From the NCBI GenBank assembly GCA_902780365.1, contig CACZFE010000003.1, forward strand, positions 1 through 39,325: a DNA stretch of 39,325 nt. The letters are read 5' to 3'. Under the pieces are notes generated by a model. The model was not told the origin of the DNA, searched no databases, and was given only the letters and a program-made list of their open reading frames with translations. Made by a program: the position numbers and the translations under genes. Positions 2,532 through 39,325 of this stretch are shown one piece after another; within the stretch, counting starts at the first letter, position 1; each line of letters starts with the position of its first letter. This DNA is from an uncultured Spirochaetales bacterium (GTDB lineage Bacteria > UBP6 > UBA1177).

Positions 2532-2607
2532 TTCTGGTCGTAGAAGTCGGGTGCCTGAGGGCTTAATTTCCTGTCTGAGACCTGTCATTGTTCTTCGATG
2601 ACCAGAA
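2532..2607 (+). promoter_or_regulatory. possible L10(L12) autoregulatory leader structure upstream of rplJ
   Basis: A long-range helix TTCTGGTC..GAAG (2532-2546) pairs with CTTC..GACCAGAA (2593-2607), enclosing about 45 nt in the 112-nt rplA-rplJ spacer. The position is that of known L10 leaders. The family was not verified. Confidence 0.3.
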
Positions 2608-2628
2608 GTAAATTGATGGAGTTGCTTA

Positions 2629-3150
2629 ATGGAAAAAAGCAAAAAACAACAGATCATCGAGGAGATCAAAGATGCGCTTTCCAAAGCTTCGTCATGCGTT
2701 GTAATCGATTTCAACGGAGTAAACATGGAGACTTTCACTCCTTTCCGTAAAGAGTGCGCGAAAGAGCAGGTAAAACTGCTTGTCGTCAAGAACACTCTTG
2801 CGAAACACGCGATTGAAGGGACTCCTTATGAGGGTATTTCGAAGTTCCTCTCCGGAATGACGGCCCTTGTGCTTACGATGGGAGATCAGGTAAGCGGTGC
2901 AAAAGTCGTCAAGAAAATCTCAAAGAAAGACGAACGCATCGTTATCAAAGCCGGCGCACTGGATGGAAAAATCCTTACGGCGAAAGAAGTGGAAGTCCTC
3001 GCAGACCTTCCGAGCAAAGAAGAGCTTCAGGCGAAGCTGCTTGCAACAATGCTTGCTGTACCTCAGAATTTCGTGCGGCTGCTTAATGCTGTTCCGCAGA
3101 CTTTTGTACGCTTGCTTGCTGCATACAAAGACAAACTTGAACAGGCTTAG
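2629..3150 (+). CDS. rplJ: 50S ribosomal protein L10
   Basis: The length, the position between rplA and rplL, and the C-terminal L12-binding helix region (LQAKLLATMLAVPQNFVRLLNAVPQTFVRLL) all fit L10. Confidence 0.93.
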   Translation: MEKSKKQQIIEEIKDALSKASSCVVIDFNGVNMETFTPFRKECAKEQVKLLVVKNTLAKHAIEGTPYEGISKFLSGMTALVLTMGDQVSGAKVVKKISKKDERIVIKAGALDGKILTAKEVEVLADLPSKEELQAKLLATMLAVPQNFVRLLNAVPQTFVRLLAAYKDKLEQA

Positions 3151-3702: not shown

Positions 3703-6700
3703 ATGATGGGGATCTTAGGACAGCAGAATTACAGAACGAGAAAGTGGTTCGGAAAAGTAGCGAAAAACGTTACTGACATTCCGGATCTTCTTGAGGTGCA
3801 GAAGGCTTCTTTCCAGGACCTGCTCCAGAAAGATGTCGCGCCTGCGGACAGAAAAAAAATCGGCTTGCACAACGCTTTTCTGTCGATTTTCCCGATAACA
3901 AGCTTCAATAACGCTATTGAACTTTCTTATCTGGGTTATTCCGTCGGTGAGCCGCAGTACGATGTCGACGAGTGCAAACTCAGAGGCACGACTTATGAGC
4001 TTCCTTTGAAAATCAAGGCGGCTTTGGCTTCTTACGATATTGACGAAAACGGAAACAGAAGCAAACTCAATTCTATTACGGAACAGGAGATTCATTTCGG
4101 TTCGATTCCGTGTATGACGGATTGGGGAACATTTATCATCAACGGAACAGAGAGGGTTATAGTCAATCAGCTCCACCGTTCTCCGGGAACCTTTTTTGAT
4201 TGTGATAAAAACAAGACAACGAGCGGAAACGAAGTCTATGCTGCAAGGCTGATTCCTTACCACGGATCATGGCTTGATTTCGAGTTCGATTCCAAAAGAC
4301 TGCTCTACGTCAAAATAGACAGAAAAAAGAAATTTCTGGCGACTATTTTCCTGAAAGCGTGGGGTTACACGACCCAGGAAATAGTTTCAGCTTTTTATAT
4401 ACCTGAAAAAATTTTGGTCCATGACGGCGTTATCGCTAAAGTTATATCCAAGGATGACGAAAATATCACCAAGCAGAAGGCACCTGCCGATATTATCGGA
4501 CCGGACGAAAAAGAACTTGTCAAAGAAGGAAAGAAATTTTCGGCCGGTGTTCTGAAAAGACTTGAAGCAGCTGGTATCAGCGAGGTTTCGCTTTCGTCGG
4601 AATATATTATCGGAAAGCGTCTCTACGCACCTGTCGCTGATCCGAAGACCGGCGAGGTTTTTGCGAATGTCAACGACGAGATCAACGCAACGCTTCTTGA
4701 CAACATCATCAAGAAAGGGGTTCAGGAATTTTCGATAATCTACTTCGAAAATATGAACTATTCGCCGTATCTTTCGAATACTCTCAAAGCGGACAAGACT
4801 GCTTCCCAGGAAGATGCTCTGCTCGAGATCTACAGAATGATGGTTCCGTCAAATCCTGTAAGACCTGATGTTGCGCGCGGTTATTTCAACGCTCTTTTCC
4901 TCAATCCTGAAAACTATGACCTCAGCGAAGTCGGTCGTCTCAGAATGAACTACAAGTTTAAGGAGAATGTTCCGCTTTCCGAGAGACAGCTCAGAAAGGA
5001 AGATGTTCTGAATTCGGTAGTATGCCTCCTCGAACTTACCGACGGCAGAGGTAAAATCGACGATATCGACCACTTGGGAAACAGAAGAGTCCGTCTTGTC
5101 GGCGAACTTCTCGAGGATGTTTTCAAAACCGGGCTCCTCAAGATGTCGCACAGCATAAAGGAAAAAATCGCAGGCGGATCCCCTGAGAATAACCAGTCTC
5201 CTTACGAGGTTATCAGCTACAAGCAGGTTTCGGCTGTTCTGAAAGATTTCTTTACGGGCGGTACTCTCAGCCAGTTCATGGATCACACGAATGTTCTTTC
5301 CGAAATGACCCACAAAAGAAGACTTTCGGCTCTCGGTCCCGGCGGTTTGACGCGCGACCACGCAGGTTACGATGTTCGAGACGTTCACAGAACGCACTAC
5401 GGCCGAATCTGCCCGGTCGAAACTCCCGAAGGTCCGAACGTAGGTCTTATCGTTTCGCTTACGACTTTTGCAAGAATAGACAAGTTCGGATACATCGAGA
5501 CTCCTTACAGAGTTGTCGAAAAATGCAAAGTTACGGATAAAGTCGTCTACCTTGACGCGATAAAGGAAGAAAGTGAAGTTATCGTTCCTTCTTCTGTAAA
5601 ACTCGACAAAAACGGAATGATCGAGGACGAAATCGTCAACGCAAGAGTTGTCGGCGAAGTTGCCAGAGTTCCGAGGGAAAATGTTACATTGGTAGACCTT
5701 GTTCCGGTCCAGCTTGTTTCCGTTTCGGCCGCTCTTATCCCGTTCCTTGAGCACGATGACGCTAACAGAGCTTTGATGGGCTCCAACATGCAGCGTCAGG
5801 CTGTTCCTCTTATCCGAACGGATGCTCCGCTCGTAGGAACAGGCATGGAAAAATACGTTGCGAGAGACTCGGGTTACACCCTTTTCGCGCAGCGTGACGG
5901 TACGGTCGTAAAAGTTGATTCGAGCAGGATCGTTGTCAAAGTCGAAGAAGACAACAATGTCGATGTTGATATTTACAACCTTATAAAATTCAAACGTTCC
6001 AACCAGAATACGGCGATCAATCAGCGCCCGGTCGTTTCTGTCGGTGACTTTGTCAGAAAAGGCGACGTCATTGCCGACGGTCCGGCTATCAACCGCGGCG
6101 AACTCGCACTCGGTAAAAACGTTCTCATCGCGTTCATGCCCTGGAACGGCTACAACTACGAGGACTCCGTTCTCATCAACCGCAGACTTCTCAAGGACGA
6201 CTACTACACGTCAGTCCACATCGAGGAATTTGTCTGCGAGGCGAGAGACACCAAACGCGGTCCTGAAGAAATCACCGCCGACATTCCGAACGCATCCGAC
6301 GAGATCTTGAGAAAACTCGACGAGAGCGGTATCATCAGGATCGGTCAGAAGATAAAACCCGGCGATATTCTTGTCGGTAAAGTAACACCGAAAGGCGAAA
6401 CTGTCCTCACTCCGGAAGAAAAGCTTCTCAGAGCTATATTCGGCGAGAAGGCGGGCGATGTAAAAGACAATTCGCTTTATGTCCATCCCGGCACTGAAGG
6501 CGTTGTCATCGACACCAGGATCTTCTCGAGAAAAGGTGTCAAGAAGGACAACCGCATAAAAGAGCAGATGCAGGAGCAGATGGATGCCGTCAAGAGAAAC
6601 CGCGACGACGAAGTCCGCATTATTGAAAAGCATACCTACGAACTTATAAGAAAGATGTTCGTCGGCAAAAAGACTGATGCTGACCTTAAGAATGAGAAAG

Positions 6701-7812
6701 ATGTTCTTGTCGTCAAGAAAGGAACGGAGCTCACTCCTGAAATCCTCGCGAATGTTCCCGAAAGCCTTATGGGTGCTCTCAGCGTGAAGGACAGAGAAGT
6801 CCTCAAAACCGCGAAAGAGCTTCTTCTCAACATGAATAGAAAGGTCGATACCGTCAAGAAGATCTACGACAACAAGATGAAGCAGATCTCGCGCGACGAC
6901 GATCTTACTCCCGGCGTTGTAAAATCGGTAAAGGTTTTTGTCGCTGTAAAGAGAAAACTTTCGGTAGGTGACAAAATGTCGGGCCGTCACGGAAACAAAG
7001 GTGTCGTTTCGATGCTTCTTCCTGAAGAGGATGTTCCCTACATGGAAGACGGCAGAACGGTCGACATCGTCCTTAACCCGCTCGGTGTTCCCAGCCGTAT
7101 GAACATCGGACAGATCTTTGAAGTTCATCTTGGCTTAGGCGCAAGAAAACTCGGCGAACAGATCAACCGCTATCTCGAAGAGAACTACAGCGTTGACAAG
7201 CTCAGAGCCAAACTCAAAGAAGTCCTTCAGCCGAGCAAGGAAGTCGCGAAACTTATCGACGAAGCCGGTGAAGACGATGTCCGCAGCTTCATCAAATCGA
7301 TGAAAGGCGGTATCTACACGGCTACACCCGTTTTCGACGGTGCTCAGGAATCGGAGATCAGGCAGATCCTCAAAGAGACCGGCGAGCGCGAGAACGGCAA
7401 GATGATACTTTTCGACGGCAGAACGGGCGAACCTTTCGAATCAGATGTAACCGTCGGCGTCATGTACTTCCTCAAACTCCACCACCTGGTCGACGAGAAA
7501 GTCCATGCAAGAAGCACCGGTCCTTACTCGCTTGTCACTCAGCAGCCTCTCGGCGGAAAGGCTCAGTTCGGCGGCCAGAGGCTCGGAGAAATGGAGGTCT
7601 GGGCACTCGGAGCATACGGCGCGGCTTACTGCTTGCAGGAATTCCTTACCGTCAAATCTGACGATGTCGAGGGCAGAAAGAAACTTTACGAAGCTATCGT
7701 CCGCGGCAAGACCAAGTACGAAATGGGAATCCCGGCGTCGTTCTCAGTCCTTGTAAAAGAGATGCAGAGCCTTTGCCTTAACGTAAATTTGATTGAAGAC
7801 AACAACAGATAG
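3703..7812 (+). CDS. rpoB: DNA-directed RNA polymerase subunit beta
   Basis: 1369 aa with conserved beta blocks: RRLSALGPGGL, PVETPEGPNVGLI, NMQRQAVPL, GDKMSGRHGNKGVVS, LNPLGVPSRMNIGQ, GKAQFGGQRLGEMEVWAL. Confidence 0.98.
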   Translation: MMGILGQQNYRTRKWFGKVAKNVTDIPDLLEVQKASFQDLLQKDVAPADRKKIGLHNAFLSIFPITSFNNAIELSYLGYSVGEPQYDVDECKLRGTTYELPLKIKAALASYDIDENGNRSKLNSITEQEIHFGSIPCMTDWGTFIINGTERVIVNQLHRSPGTFFDCDKNKTTSGNEVYAARLIPYHGSWLDFEFDSKRLLYVKIDRKKKFLATIFLKAWGYTTQEIVSAFYIPEKILVHDGVIAKVISKDDENITKQKAPADIIGPDEKELVKEGKKFSAGVLKRLEAAGISEVSLSSEYIIGKRLYAPVADPKTGEVFANVNDEINATLLDNIIKKGVQEFSIIYFENMNYSPYLSNTLKADKTASQEDALLEIYRMMVPSNPVRPDVARGYFNALFLNPENYDLSEVGRLRMNYKFKENVPLSERQLRKEDVLNSVVCLLELTDGRGKIDDIDHLGNRRVRLVGELLEDVFKTGLLKMSHSIKEKIAGGSPENNQSPYEVISYKQVSAVLKDFFTGGTLSQFMDHTNVLSEMTHKRRLSALGPGGLTRDHAGYDVRDVHRTHYGRICPVETPEGPNVGLIVSLTTFARIDKFGYIETPYRVVEKCKVTDKVVYLDAIKEESEVIVPSSVKLDKNGMIEDEIVNARVVGEVARVPRENVTLVDLVPVQLVSVSAALIPFLEHDDANRALMGSNMQRQAVPLIRTDAPLVGTGMEKYVARDSGYTLFAQRDGTVVKVDSSRIVVKVEEDNNVDVDIYNLIKFKRSNQNTAINQRPVVSVGDFVRKGDVIADGPAINRGELALGKNVLIAFMPWNGYNYEDSVLINRRLLKDDYYTSVHIEEFVCEARDTKRGPEEITADIPNASDEILRKLDESGIIRIGQKIKPGDILVGKVTPKGETVLTPEEKLLRAIFGEKAGDVKDNSLYVHPGTEGVVIDTRIFSRKGVKKDNRIKEQMQEQMDAVKRNRDDEVRIIEKHTYELIRKMFVGKKTDADLKNEKDVLVVKKGTELTPEILANVPESLMGALSVKDREVLKTAKELLLNMNRKVDTVKKIYDNKMKQISRDDDLTPGVVKSVKVFVAVKRKLSVGDKMSGRHGNKGVVSMLLPEEDVPYMEDGRTVDIVLNPLGVPSRMNIGQIFEVHLGLGARKLGEQINRYLEENYSVDKLRAKLKEVLQPSKEVAKLIDEAGEDDVRSFIKSMKGGIYTATPVFDGAQESEIRQILKETGERENGKMILFDGRTGEPFESDVTVGVMYFLKLHHLVDEKVHARSTGPYSLVTQQPLGGKAQFGGQRLGEMEVWALGAYGAAYCLQEFLTVKSDDVEGRKKLYEAIVRGKTKYEMGIPASFSVLVKEMQSLCLNVNLIEDNNR

Positions 7813-36484: not shown

Positions 36485-37030
36485 CTAAATTCCCGTCGTT
36501 CCCGCTTTCAGAGCCGTGAGCAGCATAATCGACTTTGCATCGACGATCTGTTTTTCGGCCATCATTTTTTCGGCAACCTCCTGCGTTACTTCGAGTATTT
36601 CGAGATCCTCGTCAATTTCGGGAAAGAGTTTGCGCTCGCCTTCGGGGATCTTTTCGACGATAGCTGTGAAATAGTGCATATACTCGTCGCTGCAGCCGCA
36701 TGAAGTGTAGGCTTCGAAGCTTTTTACGAGCTTTACAGGGCGGTATCCTGTCTCTTCCTCAAGTTCGCGGACAATGCAGTGTTCAGGCGCTTCGCCTTTG
36801 TCGATCTTTCCTGCCGGGATCTCATAGATCCAGCGGTCAATCGGCGTTCTGTACTGTTTTTCGAGAAGGATTTTGCCCTCTTTCGTTATCGCCAGCACCG
36901 AAGCCGTTCCGCAGAACCTGATGACCGAATGACGGACCCTTCGTCCCGACTTGTCGAGCTCGACTTCCGACACCGTGAAAACCCGCATGTCTGCGACTTG
37001 TTTTTCTGAAATTATCGTGTTTTTTGCCAT
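36485..37030 (-). CDS. Nudix hydrolase (ADP-ribose pyrophosphatase-like)
   Basis: Nudix box GKIDKGEAPEHCIVRELEEETGY fits Gx5Ex7REUxEExGU. Confidence 0.85.
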   Translation of the reverse strand: MAKNTIISEKQVADMRVFTVSEVELDKSGRRVRHSVIRFCGTASVLAITKEGKILLEKQYRTPIDRWIYEIPAGKIDKGEAPEHCIVRELEEETGYRPVKLVKSFEAYTSCGCSDEYMHYFTAIVEKIPEGERKLFPEIDEDLEILEVTQEVAEKMMAEKQIVDAKSIMLLTALKAGTTGI

Positions 37031-37105
37031 GTTTCACCTCCAAAAGTACAAAAACTGCGGTTTTATATTGCAAAATGGAATTTTAGGCAAAAACAAATGT
37101 CAGCT

Positions 37106-37189
37106 GCGGAGAAGTGGTTGGTCGCAGAGCCTCGGTCACTGAGCCTGTCGAAGCACTACCTCACACAATGGACGGAATATTTATTGATT
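37106..37189. repeat. direct repeat copy 1 flanking the AbiE cassette (contains a remnant of a lipoprotein gene 3' end)
   Basis: The core 37125-37173 (49 nt) matches 38815-38862 with one indel and one substitution. On the - strand it reads ...V H C V R TAG, against ...V R C V R TAG at the real gene end in copy 2. Weaker similarity extends to 37106 and 37189. Confidence 0.85.
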
Positions 37190-37191
37190 TT

Positions 37192-38031
37192 TTATGAGAT
37201 CAAATCCAGCAGTTTCTCAATGCTTTCAACAGCTTGTTCGAACGAAACATCGGCTGCATACGGCATTTTCTTTGTGTATTTCTGCCACAAATCTTTCAGG
37301 TTTTCCGAATTTTTTATGGCTGCAATCAAATCAGGAATCTGTGAAAGAATTTTTTCACTGCCTCTGTGCTCGCAAGTCCGTTGAAGAGCGGTTTTCAAAT
37401 CTTTGGTATTTATCCGTGTTAAATCCGCACTTAAAACATATACATCGTAAAAATCACGCGGGCGGGTTGTCGTGATATTCCTGACAAGAATCGTTTCCAG
37501 TTTTTCCGCAAGAACATTTTCAAAGGGATAAGAAAGCAGCGAAATCGAGCCGTTTCCAAAGATTTTCGCGAATTCATGTCTGCGCGGTTTCGGATAAATG
37601 CTGTCTCCGGCAGTGATATCCAAAGTCAAAGTGTGGTGCATTTTTTCGTAATCAGCCAACACGAACGCCCTGAAACCGTTGTATTTGTCGTCCTCGCGAA
37701 TCGGTTCGACCCGATCCGGAGAAAAGATAAAATCATCATCGTTTTCGATTGCACAAACATCTGAAATTATTCTTGTTATGACATTTTCATCAAGCGGAAG
37801 ATTGTTGATAGTCGTGTCGATATCCATCGTAGTTCGGTGCGAAATTCCTACAAAAGATGCTATCAGAACACCGCCTTTTATTATAAAACGGTCTGCATAT
37901 TCCGATTTTTCAAGGCGTTCAAGAAAACATTCCATCAGATAATTCTGCAGCATAATCTGCGGCGGAACGGAAAGTTCCTTGGATTTGTTATTGATTCTGG
38001 CTTTAAGCTGCATCGCGTTTTCGGTTTTCAT
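37192..38031 (-). CDS. abiEii: AbiEii/AbiGii-family nucleotidyltransferase toxin (type IV TA)
   Basis: The N-terminus ...LQNYLMECFLERLEKSEYADRFIIKGGVLI...RTTMDIDTT is the DUF1814/AbiEii pattern. It overlaps the upstream antitoxin gene by 4 nt. Confidence 0.82.
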   Translation of the reverse strand: MKTENAMQLKARINNKSKELSVPPQIMLQNYLMECFLERLEKSEYADRFIIKGGVLIASFVGISHRTTMDIDTTINNLPLDENVITRIISDVCAIENDDDFIFSPDRVEPIREDDKYNGFRAFVLADYEKMHHTLTLDITAGDSIYPKPRRHEFAKIFGNGSISLLSYPFENVLAEKLETILVRNITTTRPRDFYDVYVLSADLTRINTKDLKTALQRTCEHRGSEKILSQIPDLIAAIKNSENLKDLWQKYTKKMPYAADVSFEQAVESIEKLLDLIS

Positions 38032-38615
38032 TGGATCGCCTCCAAATAGGAGAGAAGTTTTTTCTCGACATGGAAAATCTTTCCGAATTTCATCAGCAGC
38101 AGAAAGTCTTTTTGCGGTGATGCCACATATTTCCTTAAAGCCGGGATAAACCGCTCTTTATCAAGTCCTGAAGGCTTGTGCAGGAGTTCGCACAATGTCC
38201 TTTCAATGCAGTAAACCCGCAGGTCGTTACCAAGATCAGACTTTATAAGCACAACTCCTTCATTCAAGGATTCTTTTGCAACATGACGCACATCGTATTC
38301 AGCGGACAGCGTTTTTGAAATATAGCCGTGCGGAACCGAAAGCGTGTATTTAAACGGAATCTGATCCGAATACCCGTTCAGAAACAATGCCGTCTCATGC
38401 GAAAATACAGCTTTCGGGCAAAGCAGCTGAGTGATAAAAAGTTCGTCAGGAATAACATCGCCCATAGCATATAGACCGTAACGGACTTTCTGAATTTTCT
38501 GAGCATTCAAAAGTTCCTGCAACTGCCAGCGTGAAATTCCGGCATCTGTCGCATTTTTCAAAGTAAAATAGCCGTTTTTAGCTTTTGCTATTTTGTTTAT
38601 CACATTATCTGCCAA
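38028..38615 (-). CDS. abiEi: AbiEi-family antitoxin/transcriptional regulator
   Basis: N-terminal winged helix (GYFTLKNATDAGISRWQLQELLNAQKIQKVRYGLY), a size of about 195 aa, and translational coupling to the AbiEii gene. Confidence 0.8.
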   Translation of the reverse strand: MADNVINKIAKAKNGYFTLKNATDAGISRWQLQELLNAQKIQKVRYGLYAMGDVIPDELFITQLLCPKAVFSHETALFLNGYSDQIPFKYTLSVPHGYISKTLSAEYDVRHVAKESLNEGVVLIKSDLGNDLRVYCIERTLCELLHKPSGLDKERFIPALRKYVASPQKDFLLLMKFGKIFHVEKKLLSYLEAIQ

Positions 38616-38795
38616 GATAACCTCTCAGACGTTTTATACTATAAGCTTGAAAAATTGTTGTACGAATTGAAAGAACTGAAATATTTGTAGCATGATAAAG
38701 AAAAATTTCAAGTTTGTTTTAAACTATGCGGAGAATTCAGATAAAACTAATAAAAGTTGAACTTGCCTCTAACTCAGGGAGATGTGGCACAAAGT

Positions 38796-38862
38796 GCCGG
38801 AGAGGGCTTGGCTACAGAGCCCGGTCACTGAGCCTGTCGAAGCACTACCTCACACAACGGAC
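38796..38862. repeat. direct repeat copy 2 flanking the AbiE cassette (overlaps the stop and last codons of the lipoprotein gene)
   Basis: See copy 1. Positions 38845-38862 are the stop codon plus the last five codons (VRCVR) of the - strand lipoprotein gene. Confidence 0.85.
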
Positions 38863-39325
38863 CCAAAGCTTGGTACTTTTATTGAGGTAGCCCACATCTC
38901 CAGTGAGGAAGCCAACATTCCAAGCGATATTGGAATTATCTGATTCAGATGAAGACCAAAGAGTAACATTCTCATCATCCTCCAGAAGGCTGTAATGTCC
39001 GCCATTGTCGCAATGACAGTCTTCGATGCTCCAGTCATCCAGAGAGAGATGATCAGGGGCTGAAACAGCGCATGAACCGCCTGTCTGCGAATTTGGACAG
39101 TTTTGAATAAGCGTTCTTAACTCGTTTATATTCGGCAGCCGCCAGTCGGAATATCCGCATTCGTTCAACCCGTCACAGTAATCAAGTGCTTCCTGCCACT
39201 CCATGGTATCCGATGACAGCGGCGACCACCAGCCGCTGTTGATTGTTGCGCAGTTTCCTGAATCGGAGCTGCTGCCACCGCCGCAACCAATCATCAAAAA
39301 CATTGTAATCATTGCAAAACAAACA
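38845..39325 (-). CDS. DUF1566-domain lipoprotein, probably 5'-incomplete at the window edge
   Basis: GYSDWRLPNINELRTLIQNCPNSQTGGSCAV...LWSSS...LWVRCVR, paralogous to 32365-33540. The frame stays open upstream of Met 39312 to the window end (..VCFAMITMFLMIGC looks like a signal h-region plus lipobox), so the true start is probably beyond 39325. Confidence 0.72.
   Translation of the reverse strand, partial: VCFAMITMFLMIGCGGGSSSDSGNCATINSGWWSPLSSDTMEWQEALDYCDGLNECGYSDWRLPNINELRTLIQNCPNSQTGGSCAVSAPDHLSLDDWSIEDCHCDNGGHYSLLEDDENVTLWSSSESDNSNIAWNVGFLTGDVGYLNKSTKLWVRCVR

Follow-up and report, generated by a model that had tools for sequence, protein, structure and literature searches.

Islands at tRNA genes are integrative elements that carry a replacement copy of the 3' end of their target gene, and phage 21 and e14, which insert in the 3' end of icd of E. 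coli, reportedly also bring a replacement end with them. In chromosomal integron arrays, toxin-antitoxin (TA) cassettes are flanked by attC repeats. The minimal mobile elements of Neisseria (Saunders and Snyder, 2002; Snyder, 2007; both as cited in PMC3787668) consist of alternative cassettes, or none, between conserved genes; in the account given there they have no mobility genes and their exchange is attributed to homologous recombination (PMC3787668). Here we describe a segment of 1,689 nt that carries an AbiE gene pair and is bounded by direct repeats, in a contig of 39,325 nt (CACZFE010000003.1; the whole contig is called the window below) from an uncultured bacterium, and compare it with these systems.

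AbiE causes abortive infection; AbiEii is a nucleotidyltransferase toxin, and AbiEi is both its antitoxin and an autorepressor (PMC3985639). The window is contig C3 of a metagenome-assembled genome (MAG; G000, 2.18 Mb in 270 contigs, 93.8% complete) from a lineage of ruminant-gut MAGs labelled UBP6 or 'Spirochaetales'. We compared it with the rest of G000 and with 14 congeneric species, using nhmmer and pattern searches, and with public metagenome contigs. Strain-level contigs were retrieved by an identity look-up of the full-length lipoprotein encoded next to AbiE (164 aa, P0001).

Occupied and empty alleles of the AbiE site

The repeats on either side of AbiE each consist of the end of a DUF1566 lipoprotein gene and a modular intergenic flank, and they bound a precise insertion or deletion of which the empty site is also present in public data. 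The features of the locus are as follows.

36485-37030, minus strand: Nudix hydrolase gene (Pfam NUDIX, 1e-17), the conserved core neighbour downstream of the variable slot
37031-37106, minus strand: putative promoter segment of the Nudix gene, 'P' (TTGCCT, 17 nt, TATAAA, then a ribosome-binding site), read by eye
37107-37173, minus strand: repeat copy 1, the orphan (VHCVR-stop, module A, module A2, start of module C), from an alignment of eight DUF1566 3' flanks with copy 1
37107-37119, minus strand: first 13 nt of module C in copy 1, from the flank alignment
37120-37132, minus strand: module A2 of copy 1, AGGCTCTGCGACC, from the flank alignment
37133-37155, minus strand: module A of copy 1, TGCTTCGACAGGCTCAGTGACCG, from the repeat alignment
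37169-38857, no strand: the 1,689-nt segment found in the occupied and not in the empty allele; its placement slides within the 36-nt identical core
37174-37191, minus strand: 18-nt spacer with the codons KINKYS (12/18 nt shared with the intact gene; p = 0.045 in shuffles), which may belong to the cassette or be a further, weak DUF1566 gene remnant
37192-38031, minus strand: abiEii, DUF1814 nucleotidyltransferase toxin, 279 aa (Pfam AbiEii PF08843, 7.6e-38; PADLOC AbiEii, 5.3e-95, covering 7-273 of 294)
38028-38615, minus strand: abiEi, antitoxin and transcriptional regulator, 195 aa (PADLOC AbiEi, 2.5e-54, covering 8-194 of 198)
38616-38725, minus strand: AT-rich abiE promoter/operator region, kept with the cassette in other species
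38760-38809, minus strand: module C (AAGCCCTCTCCG, a GGCAC/GTGCC hairpin, then CATCTCCCTGAGTTAGAGGCAAGTT), a dispersed intergenic module on the cassette side
38810-38862, minus strand: repeat copy 2 (A2' at 38810-38821, module A at 38822-38844, VRCVR-stop of the intact gene at 38845-38862)
38845-39325, minus strand: DUF1566 (Lcl_C) lipoprotein gene, full product 164 aa (Pfam Lcl_C, 4.4e-21, to profile position 117/117)

A repeat search of the window matched 37133-37173 to 38822-38862 at 40 of 41 nt (98%), 1,689 nt apart. The 36-nt identical core occurs exactly twice in the window (shuffle expectation 0.00), which bears out an earlier sequence-only reading that AbiE is flanked by direct repeats. 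The longer core described in that reading was reproduced on alignment: 49 and 48 nt (37125-37173 and 38815-38862) with one 1-nt indel (at 37132) and one substitution (T at 37169, C at 38858).

The occupied order, DUF1566-AbiEi-AbiEii-Nudix, is present in at least ten public contigs from several samples and assemblers (including ERZ27280006, ERZ28613871, ERZ1029111, ERZ27257207, ERZ27257203, two JGI samples, ERZ28613012 and ERZ1029112), and assemblies made at k=87 and at k=141 agree on it with 98.4-100% identity. Since these independent contigs span both repeat copies, an assembly chimera at the repeat is ruled out. The empty allele comes from ERZ27279964 (contig k141_1604913, 966 nt, k=141; L102), which has no AbiE and one hybrid repeat copy, GTCCGTTGTGTGAGGTAG TGCTTCGACAGGCTCAGTGACCG AGGCTCTGCGACC AACCACTTCTCCG. 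Over the 481 nt of lipoprotein gene that this contig shares with the window there are 0 mismatches, and after the repeat it goes straight into an unchanged segment P and the Nudix gene (330 nt, 1 mismatch). In window coordinates, L102 joins 39325-38854 to 37168-36844, and the two alleles differ by exactly 1,689 nt. The single copy has the base of copy 2 at the substitution and the state of copy 1 at the indel, and therefore the crossover lies inside the 36-nt identical core. AbiE has been gained or lost by a crossover within this core.

Three nested states coexist at the site. In S0, found in most species of the genus and in the public contig L078, the gene for a 243-aa methyltransferase abuts the Nudix gene; L078 is 96% nt identical over the shared stretch and encodes an identical Nudix protein, with no lipoprotein gene or AbiE here. 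S1, represented by L102, is S0 plus an 861-nt DUF1566 block, and S2, represented by the window, is S1 plus the 1,689-nt AbiE segment. Upstream of the lipoprotein gene, contig L098 continues through a (CGCAA)12 tract and reaches the gene for the 243-aa methyltransferase at its 3' end; the nesting follows from L098 and L102 together with the S0 contigs that lack the lipoprotein gene. The events would have taken place in the order S0, S1, S2. The 861-nt insertion, delimited by comparing window 37031-39325 and L098:306-2855 with L078 and most of the genus, has the stop codon of the gene for the 243-aa methyltransferase on one side and the Nudix ribosome-binding site on the other, and carries its own promoter as well as the Nudix promoter segment.

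The sequence-only reading had placed AbiE where the body of a second lipoprotein gene would be. No second lipoprotein gene is found in S0, S1 or S2: L102 has the identical gene, one repeat and the Nudix promoter without a tandem paralogue, and the S0 state across the genus has no lipoprotein gene at the site. The claim that AbiE replaced a paralogue is therefore unsupported. Of the two ancestral states suggested for a search in relatives, the empty site between the Nudix and lipoprotein genes was found, and tandem lipoprotein genes were found neither in the 14 related species nor in the retrieved public contigs. Among the representative species neither state was visible at this site, and it was the strain-level contigs that gave the answer.

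Compared with the window, L098 has 0 differences in the DUF1566 gene and 3 in the 1.5-kb AbiE region, against 41 over some 600 nt made up of Nudix sequence and of the methyltransferase gene 3' of it. At 99.8% identity between strains about 7% divergent in the Nudix region, the block is consistent with an exchange through transformation and homologous recombination in flanking genes, and such near-identity amid diverged flanks indicates that it spread recently across diverged backgrounds.

These data allow a comparison with two of the systems introduced above. As in elements that integrate in gene 3' ends, the direct repeats contain the 3' end of the target, the target gene is intact, an orphan 3' end stands at the far border, and related strains have a precise single-copy empty site. 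Unlike those elements, the segment is just 1.7 kb, has two cargo genes and no integrase, and its repeat is a mosaic of short dispersed intergenic modules instead of a unique attachment (att) core. With the Neisseria minimal mobile elements, as PMC3787668 relates them, it shares alternative contents (S0, S1, S2) between two genes, here those for the 243-aa methyltransferase and the Nudix hydrolase, the lack of mobility genes, and a block that is near-identical across strains with flanks about 7% divergent; relative to that description, its own short flanking direct repeats, able to delete or insert the cassette, set it apart.

Structure of the repeat and its surroundings

On the minus strand, copy 2 ends at 38845-38862 with GTC CGT TGT GTG AGG TAG, which encodes VRCVR-stop. 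As had been read from the letters, these 18 nt are the end of the Lcl_C/DUF1566 open reading frame (ORF), and the Pfam match runs to the last profile position. Copy 1 has GTC CAT TGT GTG AGG TAG (VHCVR-stop) at 37156-37173, with no ORF body, 18 nt past the abiEii stop. Its description as an orphan gene end agrees with our findings: the codons belong to the end of a Pfam domain and not to a bare REP-type (repetitive extragenic palindromic) element, which supports copy 1 being the relic of a gene end. In-frame KINKYS codons do come directly after the abiEii TAA (37192-37194), as the same reading had it, but the resemblance of INKYS to LNKST of the intact gene is marginal (12/18 nt, shuffle p ~0.045), and we therefore do not rely on it.

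Weaker similarity between the copies had been traced leftwards to 37106. As far as module A2 (37120-37132) and the start of module C (37107-37119) this similarity is real; left of about 37108 the sequence is the Nudix promoter segment. Segment P is shared with contig Ga0265301_10014594 up to window position 37108, where that contig runs into an unrelated gene, and because the promoter segment thus also occurs in a contig without the repeat, the orphan unit starts at about 37107. In part of the genus, segment P is the Nudix gene's own. A search within the genus for the origin of 37031-37132 gave nothing significant, and one metagenome contig shares the segment.

Outside the core the two copies are only about 70% identical, and A2 and A2' match at only about 10 of 13 positions. 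Module C is complete on the cassette side and represented by just its first 13 nt on the Nudix side; its copies are 84-96% identical in at least ten genomes of the genus, and it is absent from the empty allele. A core matching at 40/41 amid diverged surroundings is the pattern expected where a crossover has joined homologous but non-identical units, and not from simple duplication. Each copy has its nearest relative in the other: the two agree at 40/41, and no other copy found exceeds 38/41. They also have in common a rare variant, CAGTGACCG, that was in no other copy found by the genus search.

An Rfam search of 36900-39325 at E<=1 gave no match, and the sole tRNA found in the window lies at 290-365, with none at the repeats. 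Folding energies of the repeats and module C were no better than those of shuffles (z -0.28 to +0.88), with no significant hairpin or palindrome. We therefore rejected a structured RNA or tRNA target, and, there being also no RAYT (REP-associated tyrosine transposase) gene and no recombinase gene nearby, an attC or REP hairpin.

The lipoprotein gene runs off the window; its start codon lies just beyond the window end, where the lipobox (LMIGC) region is located, and the full-length P0001, with 38 extra upstream nt, was obtained from ERZ28613012. About 100 nt upstream of the start codon is a (CGCAA)n tract of 9 to at least 20 units (L098:401-460 and the starts of L099-L106), because of which the window and most public contigs end there. 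This tract might render expression of the lipoprotein phase-variable. In the 97% identical orthologue in L106, homology to the window is lost inside the last codons. In the 93% identical orthologue of species G007, 4 of the last 18 nt differ and the 3' flank is a different one; differences between this orthologue and the window gene are spread out and not clustered. An IS200-like/RAYT-type gene (L027, G007:C24, 2950-3609) adjoins the 93% orthologue and htpG, on the strength of a weak Y1_Tnp match (7e-5).

The Nudix gene has orthologues at 82-93% nt identity and in the same synteny in at least 11 species. Most congeners have the order sigma-54-type regulator (477 aa), 243-aa methyltransferase, Nudix hydrolase, RlmD-like methyltransferase, with a gap of 8-9 nt between the 243-aa gene and the Nudix gene, and window homology to these congeners ends about 10 nt upstream of the Nudix start codon. 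G000, G002, G008 and G009 each have another neighbour upstream of the Nudix gene, and this stretch is a rearrangement hot spot. In G008 the neighbour is a 16S rRNA gene (L029, G008:C1:8500-12600, at about 2600-3110).

The AbiE cassette and its mobility

The sole genes between the repeats are abiEi and abiEii, both intact, with the abiEi stop and abiEii start overlapping by 4 nt; there is no recombinase in the 1.69-kb cassette. By family membership, the cargo is predicted to be a type IV toxin-antitoxin and abortive-infection pair. Like the AbiE systems of Lactococcus lactis and Streptococcus agalactiae (PMC3985639), it is a bicistronic operon with the antitoxin gene first and overlapping the toxin gene, it has a DUF1814/AbiEii nucleotidyltransferase, and both products match the PADLOC AbiEi and AbiEii models full-length. 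It is unlike them in its uncultured ruminant-gut host and in its AbiEi, which matches no Pfam AbiEi family and had no match at all in the Pfam and NCBIfam libraries.

The G+C content of the cassette is 0.35-0.45 (0.35-0.40 in the promoter region), against about 0.50 in the flanking core genes. The abiE promoter region is 79-80% nt identical to that of cassettes in species G011, G013, G005 and G009, and homology stops at 38714-38730. The G011 cassette is 91-95% nt identical to the one in the window, compared with 77-85% for the core genes of G011, and sits at another locus. Those of G013, G005 and G009 are 82-85% identical and lie downstream of, and co-oriented with, a lipoprotein gene, which in G013 and G005 is of the DUF1566 type by its C-terminal residues. 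Location at other loci and, in G011, greater likeness than that of core genes show that the AbiE cassette moves between lineages within the genus.

In being a small, promoter-bearing TA cassette between similar short repeats, beside unrelated cassettes, the locus also resembles the TA cassettes of integrons, and as there the TA pair could stabilise the region against loss; the addiction property could slow the loss of the cassette through its flanking repeats. It differs from integron cassettes in that there is no attC-like imperfect palindrome and no integron integrase nearby, and in that the repeat holds coding sequence of the neighbouring gene.

G000 has four tyrosine-recombinase (Phage_integrase) genes, all on other contigs (C50, C28, C40 and C157). 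The one on C40 (G000:C40:352-876) has one in-frame TGA.

The gene-end repeat across the genome and the genus

With 142 Lcl_C domain matches, G000 has many DUF1566-type domains. Across the genus, the repeat is a composite of 18 nt of DUF1566 coding sequence (the proximal part) followed by intergenic modules, which after the stop codon come in the order A (TGCTTCGACAGGCTCAG..ACCG), A2 (AGGCTCTGCRACC) and often C (AAGCCCTCTCCG, a hairpin, CCTCTCCCAGAGTGAGAGGCAAGTT). The sequence-only reading had suggested looking for further copies behind DUF1566 genes, and in almost all species of the genus VRCVR-stop with TGCTTCGACAGGCTCAG..ACCG indeed stands behind many DUF1566 paralogues, those of G000 being on C3, C191 and C81. 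Module A also occurs without a gene end, joined to other short modules (G000 C76, C41, C151 and C83; L044, L054, L055 and L056), and modules A, B and C are joined in series in many intergenic regions. Its copy number in G000 is nevertheless low, about 10 by nhmmer and regular expressions.

The same reading had named a REP-like dispersed element as the finding that would undo it. This applies to half of the repeat, because the distal 23 nt (module A) are a low-copy module found also away from DUF1566 genes, whereas the proximal 18 nt are gene-derived. Like REP elements, bacterial interspersed mosaic elements (BIMEs) with their RAYTs, and the palindromic elements of Rickettsia, these are short modular intergenic repeats that are shared across the genus and found at rearrangement borders; unlike them, they number about 10 in G000 and have no palindrome. 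A search for the RAYT/Y1 transposase (PF01797) in the 93.8% complete G000 gave no match, and the nearest thing to one in our data is the weak Y1_Tnp match beside the orthologous lipoprotein gene in G007.

Other orphan gene ends start at codon -5 or -4, in G012:C26 and in a family comprising G007:C53, G000:C79 and G000:C48. Longer DUF1566 relics, of 40-86 codons, occur in the genus too. In G011:C25, a 133-nt repeat (131/133) that starts exactly at codon -5 flanks about 400 nt.

The closest parallel is in species G003, where the G000:C81 lipoprotein gene has an orthologue with a CVR-A-A2 unit, and a 4.9-kb island lies behind that unit. The island contains a KilA-N gene and a complete diversity-generating retroelement (DGR), with a 478-aa DUF1566 target, an Avd-like protein and a reverse transcriptase (RT). 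The DGR spans about 3349-6997 of L095 (G003:C34:37500-47000) and includes a 128-aa four-helix Avd-like gene (identified by position and size), a template repeat (TR) at about 5547-5686 and an RT of 442 aa. TR and variable repeat (VR) match at 123/140 positions, all mismatches fall at TR adenines, and the repeat continues past VRCVR-stop into flanking sequence. Module C stands at the start of the island, and an orphan 'NLRCVR-stop + A-variant' closes it immediately past the RT stop; its left and right units differ widely, and there is no recombinase in its 4.9 kb. G000:C81 and G006:C3 are empty sites for it, with one unit and no tandem gene. The AbiE locus is a further relic-bordered cassette, here with an observed empty allele.

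Several side observations concern such units. A composite relic of about 130 nt occurs twice without a gene (G000:C79:3890-4010 and G000:C48:2310-2440) and once behind an intact gene (G007:C53, L037). It consists of the last codons of an apparently DUF805-like gene (..NPKGE-stop; assigned to DUF805 by sequence), a spacer, an orphan CVR-like piece and module A. Directly upstream of the relic on C79 (G000:C79:470-5612) are genes for a HerA/DUF87-type ATPase (545 aa) and a 587-aa glycine-zipper membrane-region protein, and downstream is one for a 485-aa protein of Schlafen/AlbA_2, HATPase_c_4 and winged helix-turn-helix domains; together, these might form a defence cassette. Downstream of another DUF1566 gene, in L062 (G004:C36:15000-26000), an AAA-ATPase gene (401 aa) and a small RloB-like gene (172 aa), both identified by eye, lie at 5896-7616 between a CVR-A unit and a copy of module C. 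A four-helix-bundle gene of about 195 aa follows an orphan CVR-stop with module A in L036 (G011:C25, 1765-2361) and L037 (G007:C53, 1814-2395); by eye, its product resembles 23S rRNA intervening-sequence or Avd-like proteins.

How the cassette may have moved

The explanation that we lean towards, with modest confidence, is that AbiE is the cargo of a 1,689-nt indel in the 3' flank of a DUF1566 lipoprotein gene, moved by recombination at gene-end repeats. The crossover would be RecA-type homologous recombination, and possible routes include Campbell-type insertion or the looping-out of a circle, as well as uptake of DNA and replacement of the allele by way of the conserved flanking genes. The orphan gene end would ride with the cassette as a portable homology handle, and would have come from an earlier stay behind another DUF1566 paralogue, not from a resident gene destroyed in place. 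Several points weigh against this explanation. The empty allele is known from a single 966-nt contig. The event may have been a gain or a loss, and a deletion leading from the occupied to the empty allele would leave room for an in-place origin. An identity of 36-41 nt is short for efficient RecA recombination. The presence of CAGTGACCG in both copies and nowhere else could mean that the duplication was generated from the target itself, and a site-specific enzyme, not the limits of homology, could be the reason why several independent relics start at codon -5 or -4. A donor locus was not found, exact look-ups of AbiEi and AbiEii giving only the same context.

If AbiE instead replaced the body of a second DUF1566 gene in a tandem pair, the empty allele would be a later deletion between the flanks. 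The orphan is gene-derived, KINKYS-VHCVR resembles paralogue ends such as NYSVRCVR, and both tandem DUF1566 genes and truncated relics of 40-86 codons are found elsewhere in the genus. Nevertheless, we consider this history unlikely: the tandem state is missing at this site from all the species and contigs named above, the G003-type locus has empty sites in two species without a tandem gene, more steps are needed than in the series S0, S1, S2, and a core of 40/41 against about 70% outside is unexpected for old tandem paralogues unless gene conversion is added. A site-specific element, for which the last five codons and module A would be the attachment site and whose non-autonomous cassettes (AbiE here, the DGR/KilA-N island in G003) would be inserted and excised by a recombinase encoded elsewhere, each with a replacement gene end that keeps the target gene whole, as in integrative elements at gene 3' ends, strikes us as slightly less likely again. 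It would account for direct repeats that contain the 3' end of an intact target and for the precise empty site, for the clustering of relic boundaries at codon -5/-4 in independent cases, for lipoprotein orthologues that lose homology to the window inside or just past the last few codons, and for the same layout in G003 (module C at the start, relic at the end, empty sites in G000 and G006). Yet neither the 1.69-kb cassette nor the 4.9-kb G003 island has a recombinase, the four tyrosine-recombinase genes of G000 are on other contigs and Y1/RAYT transposases are lacking there, no significant hairpin or palindrome was seen in the repeats, the units at the two ends of the G003 island are widely different where att cores would not be, and the longer relics of 40-86 codons exist too.

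The G003 island also raises the thought that copy 1 is the remnant of a DGR, namely a leftover template repeat (TR/IMH*, from initiation of mutagenic homing), and copy 2 the end of the variable repeat (VR/IMH) of a DUF1566 target. There, a true DGR has such a target, with the TR/VR match and the adenine-restricted mismatches given above, and the sole substitution between copies 1 and 2 is A in the orphan against G in the gene on the coding strand. We think a DGR remnant very improbable here, since G000, at 93.8% completeness, has no reverse transcriptase (RVT_1), the copies share just five codons (15 coding nt, one mismatch) with upstream parts that are not collinear, the window gene departs from its 93% orthologue at scattered sites and not in VR-like clusters, the flank past the stop is module A and not the IMH-like sequence of G003, and segment P and the Nudix gene directly follow copy 1 where the RT gene would be expected. 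A DGR template repeat at this locus was rejected on the lack of an RT in G000 and of VR-like variation, and on the non-collinear upstream parts. That two dispersed REP-like copies happen to flank AbiE by coincidence is scarcely credible. Module A does occur without a gene end at the eight places listed above, and modules A, B and C are chained in many intergenic regions; but the repeat holds 18 nt of coding sequence, the two copies are closest to each other, G000 has only about 10 copies with neither a RAYT gene nor a palindrome, and coincidence is contradicted by an empty allele that differs by exactly one copy and the cassette.

A bolder and rather doubtful idea is that module A and the five DUF1566 codons before the stop together form a dedicated recombination site for a family of cassettes free of mobility genes and served by a trans-acting enzyme. 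The family would include AbiE here, the DGR/KilA-N island in G003 and the 400-nt remnant in G011, each bringing a spare gene end that lets the lipoprotein gene survive. The enzyme could be a DGR-type reverse transcriptase, because the unit boundary coincides with the start of DGR homing. If this were true, the roughly 70 DUF1566 genes per genome would be a distributed landing pad for defence genes.

What the locus tells us

The biology here is of a known kind, recombination at short repeats combined with an AbiE pair of a known family. What the locus adds is a natural comparison of the states before and after a phage-defence or TA cassette was gained or lost in an uncultured rumen lineage, with three nested states and a crossover mapped to 36 nt. 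It also calls for caution in annotation, as orphan gene-end fragments beside cargo genes need not mark resident genes that have been destroyed. More broadly, the locus suggests that defence genes in these genomes are swapped at joints formed by short intergenic modules and the ends of lipoprotein genes, a family that is hugely expanded.

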